DNA of 64,000 bases. It comes from Vermamoeba vermiformis (taxonomy: Eukaryota). The stretch spans positions 124,001 to 188,000 of the forward strand of contig JBEWZL010000013.1 of assembly GCA_045837725.1 (NCBI GenBank), in the 5' to 3' direction. Under the pieces are notes generated by a model. The model made no database searches, was not told the origin of the DNA, and was given only the letters and a program-made list of their open reading frames with translations. Positions 24,409 through 54,661 of the stretch are shown piece after piece. How positions within the stretch are numbered: the stretch's first letter is position 1; each line of letters begins with the position of its first letter. A program made the position numbers and the translations under genes.

Positions 24409-27400
24409 ATGAGCAAGACCACGATAACGGCCATCGTCTTTTTAGCGTCACTGCTCACCGTAGTTTATGCCACAACTACGGTCACGAACCTAGCTTCAGC
24501 GGACACCTGCATCGATCCGTACAATGGGCAAAACGCCAAAGTAACGGTGTATCCGTTGTACCACGGCACACGCATTCCTATGATGAAATTCGACTTATCT
24601 GGCATACCTGCTGATGCCTACATTATAAGCGCCCAATTGAACTTAACCTTCGAGAGTTGGGGCACGGACTGGGGGTAAGCAATTAATTAATTTAATTCAA
24701 TCCATAAATTAATGTATTATTACAGAGGTCCTCAATCGATAAAGGTGTTCGATTATACCGTTCAAGACGTATGGACTGAATTTACCGAAGATGCTACATG
24801 GGATTCATCTGGAATTACTTCTTGGGGTAAATACTCATCTAATATTAAATCCGATCGTTGCTTGTAACTAATCTTTGCATTGTTAAGCTGCACTCGGTAT
24901 GAAGGATGCCGTCGATAAGAACACCATCTTAAACCGAGTGTTTTTGTTAAACGTTTTTAACGGCCAAAACTGGACTACCGTTGAAACACGAGAAAGCGTT
25001 CAAGGTACGTGATCCCTTTGCTAAATAAGTGCACTAGATCTAACTAGTCTAATTGCAGCGAGCATTGAGAACTCCCGCAACTGGGCTGGCTTTATGTTCA
25101 CAGCGTTCCAGTTCAGCGCATACATCTTCTCGCGCGAGAGTACCAATCCACCCACTCTAACGATCACGTGGGCTCAAGGCGTGCCTCGTGCTTCATTGCG
25201 TAAGTAATCCGGTCATCTATTTTATCGATGGGACTAACTGATCCGGATCGGACAGCCGATATCATCATCAAGTCCAGCGATGAGTGGAGCGCTGGTGGTA
25301 CTGTCTCTATTCCCTGCAGCAACAGCATCATCCCGCAGGGTACTACACCTGTGTACACTTGGACTCTCGTTTCAGCCCCTCCCGGCTCATCCCACGTGGT
25401 AGGTAAAGTCATCCATTGGCCACATCTGATACACATACCAACGGCTCTGATCTACAGGCGAAACTGTTGGCAGTGACGCGACTCTCAGTCTCACCGCAGA
25501 TGTTCCTGGCTTCTATCACGTGCGATTACGCATTGCCAAGAGCGACGACGCCAACGCGTTCACTGAAGCAGACAGCTACGTACAAGTCGGCATTAAGACC
25601 GAACGACCTAGGTAAGCTATAAGGGCAGTACCAGTACTTCGATCTCCGAACTAACGCATTCATCCAGAGTTCACATCTCTAAAGACTACGTCAATACTCA
25701 CATCAAGAACGCTAACTTGACTGCGCACCCGTACGTAGTATTAATTGAACTATAATCGATGTCTATATTTACCTTATTTGTTCCAGATGGCCCAAATTGC
25801 TCGGACTAGCAGCGAACAACGGATACTGGAGCTTTGCCTACGAAGAAATTTACACGCTGTTTATGTTGTGGCAAGCGACCGGTAATCAAGCTTACTGTCA
25901 ACAGGCTTGGGACAACTCCATTAAGCCTATCCTCTTCGTCAATGGTGATCCGAATCAAGGCTACTTAACTCTTGACGCTAAATTCGGAGGTGATTCTCAC
26001 TCCGCCGCGTTCATGGGAGGCCAGTACTTGGGAAATTTCCCTGTCGCTATCGATTGGGGCTTCGATTGCTTAAGCACCTTCCAAAAGGACTCAATCGTCG
26101 AGTGGGTGCATCACGAGACCGAATACATGCTTAGCAACGGATTCTTCGAAACTTACTTGAGAAATGACGGTAAGTCGCCTTTCATGAAGCAATCTACGGA
26201 TCGATTAATAATATGCCTGTAGGTGTCATCATTCTCTCTTCAATTTCTCGAGCATTCGCTGCTCTCTATGGTTATGATAACAACGTAAATCGCTTTGCTG
26301 AGCTCTACGTCAAGGGATGGGCCAAGCGTAAGTTTAAAACCTTTTCTGACTCTGACCATGCCACTGACACTCTAACAGTTAAGCGCGCGTGGGGCAAGAC
26401 TGGCAGGGGTGGTTCTTCAGGTGAAGGCAACGGTTACGGTCACTCGACTGCCAACTACTTGATCGTGGGTGCTCATGCTATGTAAGGAATTCAATACGAC
26501 ACTGAACTGCGTGCTAATGATTGTATATTAGGTGGACTGCAACTGGCGAGGACGTGTTTGAAGAGCTCGATTTCTTTAAGCAAAAGTTGATGTTTGACGC
26601 CTTCGGTCTTTGGCCCCGAACATTCGGCAACCCCAATGATGTACGTGTGACCTTTGAGACTCTCGTAACTGCCATATATTGACCATTACTATACAGCCCT
26701 ATGGCACCGCGCCCTATGGTTATCCCATGTGGGAGATGTCGGGCATTGGTGGTGACGGTCGCCGTAGTCTCGGTTGGATCAGTATCGCCATCAGACCAGT
26801 GGGCCAAGCGCTGCTGACACGTTACAAGGACACTGAAGAGGGCAACGCATTTGCCTATCTAGTGCGTCCTGTGCCTGATGAGTGGGACATTCACGAGCTG
26901 ATCTACCCCGTTGTTCGCAATACTCCCCAAGTACCGACAAAGCTGTCACACTATGCTGAGGGCATGGGCTATGTGTACATTAGATCCGATTGGACGCCAG
27001 ACAGCACGTGGTTTGCATTCTGGGCCGGTCCTCATGTTGACTTGCACCAACATTTGGATCAAGGAGCGTTCAATATCTACAAGCGCAGAGACTTGGCGAT
27101 TAAATCCGGCAGTTACGATTCTGGTGCTGCAACTTCTGACCACAGCGTTGCATATTACACTCGTACCATCTCAGCCAATGGCATCTTGATCATCGATCCT
27201 GAAGAGCAGTTCATGTAAGTTTTGTTTGACTCATTTATGAGCAAGTTTTTAATAAGTTTATCTTACCTAGGCACTTTATCGGAGGTCGTGGTTGCATGTC
27301 AAACAATGGTTGGAACGTTGCAGTGACCCTGAACAATGGTCTTTGCCCGCCCAACGACGGAGGTCAACGCACTTGCTCGCCATTGGCCATGTCTGTTGGC

Positions 27401-28405
27401 ACGGTGGAGTACTGGGAAAACAATTTCTACATTTACGACACTGCCAAGGTCACCAGCTTCTACGACTTTGAAGGTGTTGTTAGCATTGCATCGGATCTGA
27501 CCAACGCGTACAACAACCCGCTCTACACTACCACTTGGAACAAGCCTAAGGTGAATCAAGTGCTGCGCAAGACACTTTACATCCGCGATCTCGACATCTT
27601 CTTGGTGGGTGACGTGATCGAAGCTACGAACAGCACCTTCAGAAAGAAGACTCTGTTGCACGCCTTGCAAATGATCGAGATTGATACCGACGCCAACACA
27701 GTGATCGAGAATGAACGCAAAGGCATTGATCGCTACAGAAACGTCAAGTCCGGCAAGATTATCATGGACGACACCGACCCCAGCAATCCCAATCAAATCA
27801 CTTACGATCTTCGTTGGGGCAATTCCACGCTATTGTTCGAAACTGCATTTCCGTCAAAGTTCTCGTACAGACTGGTCGGAGGAAGAAATCCAGTTGAAGG
27901 CAGTTACGCTGACTTTTGGGTCGATGACTACGCTAAAGACGCATGGGGTGGTATTCAGTCGCGTTCTTCAGTCAACTACCCGGTCTCATATGCAATTGAG
28001 ACAGCTTATAATACCTTTGGACCTACTTATGTTGGCGGTTATGGTCGCTACAGATTGGAAGTCGAGGCCGAGACCAATGAGGCCACAGACTACTTTTTGA
28101 ACATCTACAGACCTACCGTTGACGGCATCAACAACGAGATCCCTGCGTACACCACGTTCGAGGACAGCAACTTCTTTGGCGTGGTGTTCAATGTGAACGG
28201 CAGAGAATACAAAGCCAAGTTCCCCAAGAACGGCGATGCGCCATTCGTCGGTGACGCGCCACCTACGATACCTGTTTCTGTGCCCGCTTCGCCCGGAACG
28301 AAGACGCCTGGTAGCAACACTCCTGGCAAGCAAACTATCAGCGCTGCTAGTTCTGTCGTAACTAGCCTCGCACTGGGCTTGGCTGCATTAGCCTTAGCTT
28401 GTTAA
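24409..28405 (+). CDS. Secreted, probably GPI-anchored DNRLRE(CBM96-like)-PKD-heparinase II/III-like polysaccharide lyase
   Basis: Signal peptide; MKFDLSGIPADAYIISAQLNLT..FSRESTNPPTLTITW (DNRLRE); YTWTLVSAPPGS..TADVPGFYHVRL (PKD). The lyase region has MGYVYIRSDW..HQHLDQGAFNIYK..YYTRTISANGILIIDP..NDGGQR. A P/T linker and a hydrophobic C-terminal tail follow. Confidence 0.85.
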
Positions 28406-28506
28406 ATAAACTTATTTTCAGCGCAAATATATGAGCTGCTAGTCAAACTTATCTTTATGTTTACCTTAACGGATCAAGATCCAGATGCAAGCTGAAGAAG
28501 TCCAGT

Positions 28507-31500
28507 CTAGTTCAACTTTGCGAGTAAAGAAGTGACTACTGGCAGCGATTCCACCACCTCTTCATCCCCTTTCTCAACGTATATAAGAGTGGCTTCCATT
28601 CCCTTTCTCAAGTTCTCCTTGATCTCGCTGTTCGCCAACAGATCGGGTCTACAACAAAAAGTTAGCGGACTTACAAATGCGCTTAATAATATACCTCTTG
28701 GCGATAATCTGGTCTAATCTTTTTAGAGTTTTAGCAACTTCTTCCCAGTCTCCATCAACGGCTGAAGGGAAGCAAGTCGAAATGAAGGCGAATTTTTCGT
28801 TGAGGTTAGGTACTTGGGCTTCACAATAGTATATGACGTTCATATATGCCACTATTGTATCATTAGTAATTATAGTACGAAGTACTTCGACTTACTAAGT
28901 GCGTTGTCGTAGACCAAGGGTCGTGTCGTGCGGTACTCTGGGGTCAATTTTTGTTCAATCCAATTGATCAATTCTGTCCATCAGTGCCGTTAATATACAG
29001 TACTGGGCACCTATAGTATACTTACGAATGAAGTCATCTCCAGTTGGCAATGTGCTCGGACACAGCTCCATCGCAACACCTAGGGTGTCGTTGTGTCAGA
29101 AAATTGTCATTAGGCTTAATTGATCATACCGTAATGATTAACAACCGCTTGTTGAATATAACGCGAGTCATTATTGAAGAAATTTGCCAAGAAATCGAGC
29201 AAGGGTTTCTGTTTTTTTGGTGTTAGATCCGGTCATGAGTTGTCGAATGAACTTACAGCACTCAAGGCGAAGTGAGCAGCGAACGTTTCACAAGCAATAG
29301 CAACTATGCATAGGTCCAACCATCGTTCTTCAGGGTCCTCAGAGTCCTCAGGGTCCGATTTATCTTCATCAAAGGGGTCGACGACAGTGTCCAGCAAAAA
29401 ATTAACAAAGACACTAAAGCCCGGTTTTTGACAGAAGAGGTCCTTATTAGGAATGTGCTTGCATATTGTCGAGAAATAGTATATGACCTAAAACAGTATA
29501 AGCATTAAATTAGTCAACGAAAGGTGGATTCGCTCAGTAAATTCAAATTTCCAATAAGAATTAAACTAAATAGCGATATTAAGAAACGGTTCATTTAAAG
29601 GTACCAACGGTTTCAATATGAGATGTAAGAGTTCCTACTTACTTCAGCTCCAAAGCCTCGTTTTTCGTCGAACGGACTGTCTGTTACACCGAATGTCATA
29701 ACGCCAGCAGGAATCATCGCCATTAGTTCATTAGTAAAATTTGAATTGAACAGTAATTCTGGTGCTAAAGTAAGCACATGCGACACAACCTGAAAAAGTA
29801 AGATTTGTAAGTAAGCTGGATCCGAGCTCGAGCTTTGTTCGTTAAGATTCAGTACCTTATTGAACGCTCTAAAAACGTGTTCTTTGGTTTTAATATCAAA
29901 GGTAACCTCGTTGATGATTGTTTCGGACATTTGTCGCAAGCGAATGACTTCTGCGAAGTTCTGTTTTGCCCGCTCAGATGTGGTGAGGTCATGTCGCGTG
30001 ATGAGCTCCGAGAACGCATCAGAGCAAATCATAATAAAATCTAAGCTAGTTAGAACGCTTATAGGTGTACCTGAGACGTACCTGGGGTGGTTTGACTCTG
30101 ATAAAAACGTTTCCCAAAGGAGATCTCGCATTTGAGCGAGGTAGGGCTGCAATATCTCGTTGTCCACGTGCAGCAATAGTCTCCACATAGCTGACAGTGC
30201 CGATTTCTTTGCTTCAACACTACTGTTGAGGCCTCCACGCTAAATCAACGAGATAAAAATGAGTTCAGATCTACGAGGGACACGTGTCAAAAGTGTCACT
30301 CTAACTTACTCCCAATACGTAATCCAGCTGTCTATCCTTTTGATGAGGTACATCATCGTCGCCTAGAAGTAAAGTACATTAGATTCACTGAACGAATCAT
30401 TCATGAATGATCGTACCACTGTCCATTTCGTCCGAAAAGGCGATGACATCCGCCGATGCTTTTTCCATTAAGATTGGAAAGATGATTGGAAGGAATGGCG
30501 CAAAGTTGTTGCCAAGCGAGCTCACGGCAAACTCCGTCAACTTAATCACCAAGCTTTCATTCGCTTCTCTGTCATTCTTAAAGTCTTCCACTGCCTGGGC
30601 GTACAATTCAGACACGTCAGTGGCAATGCTCGCTTTGTTCGTCGCGCTCAACACTGCGCCTATTCTGCCTAGTGTCTCCATGACCGAGTCACGTGTCATT
30701 TTGTCACCAGTGGCAAGCAGTTTTTTGAACTGTTTCAGTGCCGACTCCTTGTACTACCCGCCAAAAGGTTATTATCGAAGTTAATATACTTTAATCATTC
30801 CTACCTTCAAGAACGTATTGTCGGATATCATGAGCAATGCACAGATCGCAAAAATAGCCTCGTGTCGCTTAGCAGAATTGTCGTCGCTAATCACGTACAA
30901 CTTCTCCAACAAGGGCTGTAAATACGGCTCTAATTTTGTCTCGTCGTCAACGTGTTCACAGTAGCGAGTAATGAACGAGCAGACTAAGAATTTGATCCTG
31001 CAAATAAACTTTGTAAAATTGTACTAACATCGAAAGATCCATGGATCCGCGTACCTCATACTCGGGGAATCAATTAACTTTAATATAATTGGTAGAATTT
31101 GCGCAGCGTAATCTTCGGCAATTTTCATCTGTGTCAATTAATGAGCGACGATTCATCGGATCCGAACTGTTTTGTTAAACTTACTTCTGTTTCCTCGCTA
31201 AGATAGGAAGGCAAAGTGGACAAATAATGGAGCGATGATATGGTCATTTCTCGGTCTTCTGATACTTGGAAATAAGGGAAGAAGTATCTAGAGTTGCATA
31301 AGTGTTAATCCAAAGTGACGTGTGAAAATTTTATGACACGTGTCATGATCGGATCCGAATGTCAATTTTTGAATTGTCCCACAAGCAGAAAAAAGTAATA
31401 GATTTAATGACACGTGTCAAACATCGAATACTTACGTTGCCATAAAGTTAGGCAAGTTCTGCACTATCGCACTAGCACATCCTTCAGCAATTGCATTGAT

Positions 31501-52983: not shown

Positions 52984-54661
52984 TTATAGAATCGCTAGCC
53001 AAGCCACAATACAAAGAACTACAAAAATAAAATATTTTGCAGTATTTCCAGCAGCGGAGCTCGTTGTGTGAGTGCACTCCGGAGTGTCAACAATTGCATC
53101 ACTTGGAGTGGCGAGAGGACTGTCATTAGTGCTTGGTGCAGCTACTGGCGAACTATCCACGGCCAGTGCAAATGGATTCTCAGTCACTTTGGTGCAGCGG
53201 TCCATGAGGCCCTGACAGTCGTTGAGCAGTGACGTGTTTGACGTGACGAGATCAATGACAGATTGGATGTCACACTCGTCGTAAGTGACACGCTCGACAC
53301 CCTCCTTGCGGTAGTACCAATCAGCTACATTTTGCGCGATGGTTCTGCCTTGAATAGCGAGGCCATTCCACTCCAACACGTGCTTGAAACACGTGGTCAC
53401 GAACACAGCATCGTTCATTGGATTTCGTTTCAAGTCCGTCAACAGTGAGCTGCGCACGTACTCGCCAACACGCATCACGTAGTCCCCGGCCCCTGAAGCA
53501 GCCAAAGCAGCACTGATTGGTGAAGGAAAGCGCAAGTTCTGGAGCAGTGACGTGTCGAGCAGTGATTGGGCCGAGTACAGTCTGTTGGGCAGATAGTTCC
53601 AGCCGTAGAGCGGAAAGCCGCAGTACGATGCGTTGGTTGGATTAGCTGCGGCACAGTCAGCATTCACACGACCTTTGTACAGCACTGAAAATGCGAGGGA
53701 CAAACTGTCTGGCAGCGACGGACCAGTCCACGAGGGCGTGAAGTCAGTGAACCACCCTGCATTCATTAGCGCTGATATGCTTGCATTGGGCACTCGCTAT
53801 AAAACATAACGGTGTTAGCTCTTGATTAGTATTTTGATGCACGTGTACATTGTTGAGCCAGTCAATGTTTGAGGTCACGCCTAACGCTCCAGCACTGCCA
53901 CCAGCCATCAAAACTTCCGTAGCATTATTGAAGCCGTACTTGGCAATAATATCTATGGGTTGAATCATCTGTAAGTATTTATACTAGTGCGCAGCCAGGC
54001 CCTGAACTGACCCTCAATGACAGCTTTGAAAATCAAATGACCCGCAAAGTATAGCCCAAAAGTCACCGTTGAGTTTTCAGTCTGCGTGCCAGTCCACAAG
54101 TCACCGCTGCAATACGGAATATGCACGCGTGTCCAGTTGTAGAAACCCTATAACAATGACACGTGTCAGAAGATCCCAACTTTTCAGCTGCGAGTGGATA
54201 CTTACCGGATTAGAACTTTGGTTGGGACTAGTATACGTACCAGTATAGCTAGCGCCAAAATAATTGCTCGAACCCAAGCTAGTCTGTTTGAAAAATAAGA
54301 AACGAAAATTCAATCATTGCATACTGTAGTACGAGCAGTGCAACCAGCTTTATCAAAGCATAAGCCACCTCCTTCGAGTGAGATCACCCACTTCGTAGAT
54401 TCCGCGCCTATTCAGTGGTTGTCAAAGAGTATGTTGATTAAATGATGGATCTTTAGAGATCTTACCTGCTTCAAAATAATAGCCTGCATTCGATCCATCG
54501 AGACTAATTATGTTAAAATTAAATGTCTTGTACAAATGTTCGGCTAGTTACCATCTGGCCCCTGTTTGATCTACGGCACCGAGCAATGCCAGAGATAAAT
54601 TGGCATCACAGTACCTAAATACAGCCAACAAAAGGGTAGTTAATAATATGCACTTGATCAT
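52984..54661 (-). CDS. Pectin acetylesterase/Notum-family hydrolase, secreted, probably GPI-anchored
   Basis: Signal peptide; ARCLDGSNAGYY, WVISLEGGGLC, FYNWTRVHIPYCSGDLWTG, nucleophile GGSAG. An S/T/P linker and a hydrophobic C-terminal tail follow. Confidence 0.92.
54157..54168. repeat. Intronic palindrome TGACACGTGTCA, copy 4
   Basis: Read directly; intron at about 54148-54205 of the acetylesterase gene, overlapping a CTGAC branch-site-like position on the minus strand. Confidence 0.9.

Follow-up and report, generated by a model that had tools for sequence, protein, structure and literature searches.

A candidate surface-tethered uronate lyase of heparinase-II fold and likely bacterial origin in Vermamoeba vermiformis

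The 64,000-nucleotide stretch of Vermamoeba vermiformis DNA analyzed here (contig JBEWZL010000013.1, positions 124,001 to 188,000, forward strand; hereafter the window) carries an intron-rich gene for a multidomain protein related to heparinase II (Table 1). The start codon lies at 24409 and the stop codon at 28403–28405, and removal of 12 introns (50–61 nt, all GT..AG) leaves 1113 codons with zero internal stops; G+C content is 0.18–0.46 in the introns versus 0.42–0.56 in the exons. The spliced model is colinear with an intron-less bacterial protein, P0001, over residues 1–1066 (35% identity, 1129-column alignment), and a spliced aligner run on the host genome assembly (43.3 Mb, 309 contigs) located paralogs on contigs C193 and C38 in which all 12 intron positions recur in the same phase, with a shift of at most one residue. 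Given this colinearity and the shared phases, the gene model is beyond chance, and the intron-rich gene is real. A preliminary description, made from the sequence alone, had put the number of spliceosomal introns above ten, which proved right; 12 is high beside the mean of 2.7 for the bacterial-like genes of another amoeba in PMC7125106, whose main text leaves lyases unmentioned. We read the gene as encoding a domesticated bacterial enzyme, a syn-only uronate lyase tethered to the amoebal surface and acting on prey exopolysaccharide, and give this overall reading a probability of about 0.55.

Table 1. Coordinates in the window of the gene and its parts, with antisense introns, and host contigs of further lyase loci
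Feature	Position	Strand	Basis or remark
Whole gene	24409..28405	+	13 exons, 12 GT-AG introns, 1113 aa; colinear with bacterial P0001; introns common to two paralogs
Signal peptide, ~aa 1–21	24409..24471	+	hydropathy; cleavage site estimated
DNRLRE/CBM96-like module, ~aa 22–200, exons 1–4	24472..25175	+	NF033679, own profile, ortholog fold match
PKD/Ig-like module, ~aa 209–305, exons 5–6	25256..25600	+	alignment to bacterial long forms
(alpha/alpha) toroid domain, DUF4962-like, ~aa 306–635	25601..26910	+	alignments, ortholog model
R455-N456-D457	26160..26168	+	profile alignments; Asn neutralizer kept, Asp at heparinase II His202 / PL15 His311 site
Y512, heparinase II Tyr257 equivalent	26435..26437	+	profile alignments
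Heparinase II/III beta-sandwich region, ~aa 645–1062	26940..28249	+	with H680 (=His406), H682, K699 (for Asp425), Y703, H712, A723 (for His451), NDGGQR
P/T/S/G-rich linker	28250..28342	+	absent from bacterial orthologs
Small-residue spacer, uncharged hydrophobic C-terminus (GPI-signal-like) and stop	28343..28405	+	hydropathy, charge count
Introns 1–6	24675-24725, 24827-24887, 25005-25058, 25200-25255, 25403-25457, 25612-25667	+	GT..AG
Introns 7–12	25731-25786, 26170-26222, 26328-26378, 26482-26531, 26641-26696, 27215-27270	+	GT..AG
Antisense intron (GTACGC..GCTAAC..AAG)	27466..27511	-	skipped in contig of run X2
Antisense intron (GTAAGT..TAG)	27733..27805	-	skipped in contig of run X1
Antisense intron (GTAAAC..AAG)	28378..28464	-	skipped in contig of run X1; 43 nt past convergent frame's stop
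PL15-like loci L022–L030	contigs C236, C116, C124 (twice), C145, C239, C247, C77, C232		

The layout given in the preliminary description (signal peptide, DNRLRE/CBM96-like module, PKD/Ig module, helical domain, heparinase II/III module, P/T linker and a tail resembling a glycosylphosphatidylinositol (GPI) signal) was confirmed throughout. For the N-terminal carbohydrate-binding module (CBM), the NCBIfam DNRLRE model NF033679 gave E=3.7e-5 on exon 1, under its cut-off since only a piece was scanned, and E=2.7e-20 on P0001. A profile built from nine bacterial N-terminal CBM and PKD regions matched the spliced model at E=2.9e-25 and reported 0/15 decoys. The N-terminal domain in the model of P0001 matched the folds of two polyuronate-binding members of the same DNRLRE family, the chondroitin-sulfate-binding CBM 8WAB (Z 16.8) and CBM96 (7VBO, Z 16.1); profile and fold match together place the module in the DNRLRE/CBM96 family, the fold being that of the ortholog. 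As with Arg36 and Phe42 of CBM96, described in the accessible part of PMC9971899, an Arg stands six residues ahead of a conserved Phe, a likeness of spacing only; unlike in CBM96, the equivalent Arg is absent from the C38 copy and from several bacterial forms. The PKD-like module was assigned through the aligned bacterial long forms, among which P0020 and P0070 match PKD families; the PKD exons of the window gene gave no Pfam match when scanned as separate exon pieces. Exon 1 (24409–24672) also has a weak match to the TGF-beta propeptide (E=0.034), which fits the structural resemblance of CBM96 to BMP9 and proactivin structures given in a table of PMC9971899.

For the catalytic module, the preliminary assignment to the heparinase II/III group stood up: exon 12 passes Pfam PF07940 (E=2.1e-5, 24.6 bits; cut-off 24) and matches heparinase II (2FUQ) at E=2.4e-11, and a profile of 46 relatives covers heparinase II over its full length (E=3e-99), making it the closest solved relative by sequence. 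A fold model was made for P0001 (pLDDT 71) and carried to the amoebal protein through the 35% full-length alignment. It matched structures of polysaccharide lyase (PL) families 12, 15, 17, 21, 35 and 39 at Z 18–21, with a toroid plus beta-sandwich fold. The tied top matches were the PL15 oligo-alginate lyase Atu3025 (3A0O/3AFL) and the PL35 GAGases (Z 21.2 and 19.9), families whose sequence match is much weaker than that to PL21; heparinase II itself, the structure that the preliminary description had singled out for superposition, followed at Z 19.8 (root-mean-square deviation 4.8, 602 aligned residues, ~19% identity). On this modeling the catalytic module has the heparinase-II fold. A search of the ESM Atlas returned generic Hepar_II_III clusters only. 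Such folds are already known in eukaryotes, from human dermatan-sulfate epimerase 1 (DSE, 6HZN), whose transfer history is debated, and from chytrid PL15-like proteins, so that the fold is mainly prokaryotic, as first described, but less exclusively so. DSE differs from the window protein in being a Golgi enzyme that keeps His205 and its Mn site; at 16% identity it is not an ortholog.

The closest characterized relative is therefore heparinase II of Pedobacter heparinus (HepB, PL21; 2FUQ, 3E7J), which shares the toroid plus beta-sandwich fold, and to which the window protein adds the CBM, the PKD module, a stalk and the GPI-like tail. Catalysis in heparinase II involves His202, Tyr257 and His406, with Glu205 as neutralizer (accessible parts of PMC12088678 and PMC10656541). 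Residues Tyr257, His406, His408, Tyr429 and His440 correspond to Y512, H680, H682, Y703 and H712 of the window protein, so both the catalytic Tyr257 and the catalytic His406 have their counterparts, and the motifs HQHLDQG (aa 680–686) and NDGGQR (aa 764–769) are where the preliminary description had seen them. That description had also proposed a check of the catalytic His and Tyr; the equivalents of Tyr257 and His406 are kept, but His202 is missing, as are two metal ligands. His202 falls on R455 or D457, according to which of two hidden Markov model registers is followed, and no His occurs in aa 445–465 of any amoebal copy; Glu205 is likewise lost. The Zn ligands of heparinase II are presumably His408, Asp425 and His451: H682 is kept, whereas K699 replaces Asp425 and A723 replaces His451, with the loss of two of three putative ligands. 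Nor does the site follow PL15, in which His311 and Arg314 stand where the window protein has D457 and I460.

These substitutions extend to the bacterial relatives. Residues Y512, H680, Y703, R455 and D457 are identical in 3/3 amoebal and 25/25 bacterial subfamily rows; among the latter, K699 is present in 22/25 and His at position 723 is missing from all 25, whereas 17/24 outer rows retain that His. Because the bacterial orthologs have the same states, replacement of His202 and of the Zn ligands is a signature of the subfamily and not amoebal decay, and the R-N-D site lacking two metal ligands is, by these alignments, a distinct and unstudied active-site variant. A partial parallel exists in the PL35 GAGases (8KHV), which likewise combine Asn, Tyr and His without an anti-base His and whose preference for polymers of glucuronate, not iduronate, is ascribed to the absent His202-type base (available text of PMC12088678); their Mn site is partly lost in the window protein. 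Following this precedent, the lack of a His202-type base predicts a syn-only lyase and not a heparin lyase.

Two alternatives bear directly on this site. The first, a true heparinase or glycosaminoglycan lyase acting on animal tissue or heparosan-like polymers, would agree with heparinase II being the closest solved relative and with the retained Tyr257, His406 and Tyr429 equivalents and NDGGQR, but it appears very unlikely: the region that should supply the missing His has none, PCHepII needs its His202 equivalent to act on heparin (accessible part of PMC10656541), and the HepB model NF045571 of NCBIfam, with a cut-off of 600 bits, scored only 72–90 bits on full-length bacterial orthologs and 50 on exon 12 alone. 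Judged by His202, the Zn site and the HepB cut-off, the protein is not a heparinase II; of the substrates named in the preliminary description, uronic-acid polymers remain the likelier, and a heparin or glycosaminoglycan role has become less likely given the missing His202 and metal ligands, although GlcA-rich heparosan may still be cleaved. The second alternative is a surface lectin or adhesin, in which the catalytic module mainly binds uronic-acid polysaccharide and helps to grip prey or biofilm. The CBM, stalk and anchor suit binding, and the absence of His202 and two metal ligands would be explained; against it, all 25 bacterial rows carry these substitutions, many of them beside TonB-dependent transporters, and Tyr512 and His680 have not changed between copies that share only 46% identity, which leaves it quite unlikely. 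We consider it likely, from these conserved residues, that the window protein is an active lyase.

The nearest relatives of the window protein are 33–40% identical to it and are either ~800 aa long (catalytic module only) or 1100–1190 aa (CBM, PKD and catalytic modules). They are Acidobacteriota DUF4962/Hepar_II_III proteins (e.g., MFB3825319.1 of Bryobacteraceae, and P0001) with the same active-site signature and, in the long forms, the same domain order; unlike the window gene, they have no introns, linker or hydrophobic tail. Already in bacterial P0001, a signal peptide and DNRLRE/CBM96 and PKD modules precede the heparinase-II-fold module. Assembly of the domains by exon shuffling in the eukaryote was considered and rejected, as the bacterial proteins have the same module order. 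The domain order thus predates the transfer, and what the eukaryote added is limited to the introns, the P/T linker and the GPI-like tail. Searches of GTDB genomes gave 54 pattern matches and nine confirmed loci, 9/9 titled Acidobacteriota, a result biased by patterns derived from an alignment of the same relatives. A careful LG+G4 tree built on 26 catalytic modules unites the three amoebal copies (100/100) and joins them as sister group (100/100) to the Acidobacteriota-type subfamily (94/96), the next branch being a pair that includes Abditibacteriaceae; a quick mixture tree of 49 rows, after removal of 10 of 59 as redundant or out of frame, agrees. In the wider family the named rows are bacterial, and most outer rows are nameless, their bacterial nature being assumed from the lack of introns and tails. 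One relative, P0021, has a VanZ-like membrane region (PF04892) fused to the heparinase II/III module, and many matches of 1120–1200 aa may be fusions of this kind.

Spliceosomal introns, paralogs and eukaryotic neighbors place the gene in the nuclear genome, and transfer from a bacterium to an amoeba is, on the alignments and tree, very likely. The 12 introns and a duplication diverged to 46% identity indicate that the transfer is old; the preliminary description had likewise proposed an old horizontal transfer, and the P0001 alignment and the tree add support. As introns and tail are common to the copies, transfer, intron gain and tail gain precede the split of the C38 copy. An origin other than transfer, whether by ancient vertical descent and widespread loss or by contamination from bacteria, would accord with an amoebal clade that is sister rather than nested and with the uneven sampling of eukaryotes in the protein collection, yet contamination is excluded by the 12 spliceosomal introns, the intron-bearing neighbors and copies on five contigs, and the eukaryote-type relatives found are confined to the host species and one relative at 72–75% identity; we regard this explanation as highly improbable. 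The broad spread of orthologs across eukaryotes that would have told against transfer did not appear in the searches. Exon 12 gave 21 matches among 438 longer candidates, none tailed, and exon 13 gave five among 8000, three of them eukaryote-type. In a profile search of 1.84 billion representatives, the one tailed match among the best 150 examined was the host's own C193 copy. A metagenome scan confirmed 11 of 191 stretches, and the nine inspected were all intron-less or frameshifted, with a GC content of 0.54–0.66; a viral scan gave 0/174. In the literature, most subscription papers and supplements being outside reach, no description of the subfamily or gene was found.

The tail is the clearest eukaryotic feature of the protein sequence. 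Hydrophobic stretches occur at both termini only, and simple hydropathy and a charge count reveal the layout of a GPI signal: a signal peptide, a small-residue omega region and an uncharged hydrophobic C-terminus without a cytosolic tail. A hydrophobic tail was present in 10/240 proteins checked, all ten being eukaryotic last-exon products from the host species or the relative at 72–75% identity; among full-length bacterial-type relatives, linker or tail was found in 0/148. The tailed relative sits on environmental contigs of up to 457 kb, and two of its called proteins start with what appears to be an intron read in frame, which suggests a further intron there. A gene for the Gaa1 transamidase subunit was found in the host genome. 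GPI anchoring of the window protein at the cell surface is, on these features, quite likely. Elsewhere in the window, a pectin-acetylesterase-family exon (52984–53796, minus strand; PF03283, E=2.4e-7) ends in a P/S/T linker and hydrophobic tail, and its product is likely a further surface-anchored carbohydrate enzyme.

Copies of the gene lie on five contigs of the host genome. The window gene and the C38 copy (46% identity, one extra intron) are intact. Between mature N-terminus and tail, the C193 copy (79% identity) has an open frame, with a dN/dS ratio of 0.13 against the window gene; in the assembly, however, a TGA immediately precedes the mature N-terminus and an in-frame start is lacking (L005:2150–2210), a defect that may reflect recent loss or an assembly error, and a count of three intact copies was rejected on this ground. 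The copies on C184 and C239 are relics, last-exon fragments at L007:5325–5852 and L008:4058–4357, one of them frameshifted. A separate family, PL15-like of the Atu3025 type, comprises nine intron-poor loci that match 3A0O at E=7e-37 and keep His311. In the frames read, both a stalk and a hydrophobic tail are seen at eight of the nine; premature termination affects L028, while L022, L026 and L030 are split or shortened. Their nearest named relatives are chytrid proteins (Obelidium, Siphonaria, Rhizoclosmatium) at 40–46% identity, compared with 21–24% for bacteria, and the two chytrid proteins scored for a tail both lack one. From these identities, eukaryote-to-eukaryote transfer or a shared old gain is possible for this set. 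That two lyase families, gained separately, end in the same type of tail supports action on polyuronates at the surface.

Genomic context in bacteria offers a further guide to function. Around nine bacterial loci, 74 open reading frames were listed and 36 scanned. A TonB-dependent transporter gene directly adjoins the ortholog in 5/9, pointing to polysaccharide uptake, and rhamnosidase, sulfatase or RG-lyase-like genes occur in some; 3/9 have neither a transporter nor a synthesis context. At the remaining locus, L017 (898–8229), a long form with CBM96 and lyase modules, frameshifted in the record, belongs to a cluster for polysaccharide synthesis that also has genes for O-antigen ligase and flippase. 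This raises the alternative that the protein, as a lyase or C5-epimerase, remodels the surface coat or cyst wall of the amoeba itself. Human DSE is an epimerase with this fold and these catalytic residues (accessible part of PMC8006597; Z 17.4), and a bacterial long form beside Wzy and flippase genes would suit such a role, but DSE requires the Mn site that is lost here, and most bacterial contexts seen are catabolic, so we hold own-coat remodeling to be unlikely.

For the domesticated, surface-tethered uronate lyase that we favor, the following course may be envisaged. An amoebal ancestor would have taken up a whole bacterial gene, encoding a secreted enzyme with CBM, PKD and heparinase-II-fold modules, from a lineage near the Acidobacteriota subfamily, if the direction is as we suppose; 12 introns, the P/T stalk and the GPI-type tail, as the shared introns show, were gained before duplication. 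A GPI anchor would hold the protein to the membrane of the cell or phagosome, where the CBM could hold a polyanionic uronic-acid polysaccharide. By equivalence with PL21, PL35, PL12 and PL17, Asn456, aided by Arg455, and His680 would neutralize the carboxylate, and Tyr512 and His680 would carry out beta-elimination; Lys699 probably occupies the place of the lost metal. Without a His at the His202 site, cleavage would be confined to bonds beside glucuronate or mannuronate-type residues (syn), leaving iduronate-rich heparin uncut. The likely substrate would be capsule or biofilm exopolysaccharide met during grazing, and a prey polysaccharide as target is, on balance, probable. An alginate lyase gene of Acanthamoeba has been proposed to act on biofilm and was left uncharacterized in the accessible part of PMC7641382. 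A bolder version, which we put forward tentatively and consider doubtful, holds that the enzymes form a metal-free new lyase family (R-N-D, with Lys for the metal) that acts on a new substrate, and that the amoeba twice independently GPI-tethered such lyases as a contact-dependent kit against capsule or biofilm.

Several observations weigh against the favored reading. The chief risk to lyase activity is the loss of two metal ligands, which could leave the enzyme weak or altered: metal-ligand mutants are inactive in PL35 and in DSE (accessible parts of PMC12088678 and PMC8006597). No solved structure with an R-N-D site was found in the searches made, and for all members found lyase activity is a prediction. 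In the tree, the amoebal copies branch beside the sampled bacterial subfamily as its sister and not within it, and the AU test does not reject nesting with P0001 (p=0.124). The C193 copy without a start and the two relics imply that the family is partly dispensable, and the synthesis cluster at L017 makes a role on the cell's own coat possible. Finally, thin data from four runs contain no sense splice of the window gene and three antisense splices.

Domestication of bacterial carbohydrate enzymes by phagotrophs is, as a general pattern, well known. The enzymes by which amoebae pass through exopolysaccharide that shields bacteria from grazing are largely unexplained, and the gene family supplies named, testable candidates with a specific prediction, that of a syn-only, metal-independent, contact-bound lyase. 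It also draws attention to a lyase subfamily in Acidobacteriota that is unstudied and differs at the active site from the solved relatives.

A search for RNA data sets containing the gene listed none. The four aligned runs (X1, X2, X3 and X5) are of low depth and only guessed to be RNA; X3 and X5 gave 7 and 20 reads, mostly less than 95% alike and without joints. Intron 7 of the C193 copy is spliced out in one contig of run X2, and one contig crosses intron 3 of the window gene unspliced. Downstream, a convergent minus-strand frame ends at 28507, and the antisense spliced RNA over the last exon (Table 1) suggests 3′ read-through of that gene; its match to importin-5 (E=0.07) is too weak to name it. 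The main actin of the host scores highest against PDB 4EFH (829 bits) and 1NLV/3CHW (825), which are Acanthamoeba and Dictyostelium actins, with vertebrate cytoplasmic actin close behind at 819; by this small margin an amoebozoan affinity is probable. Elsewhere in the genome, the host actin family is very large, with 123 matches, among them six intron-less copies of identical score.

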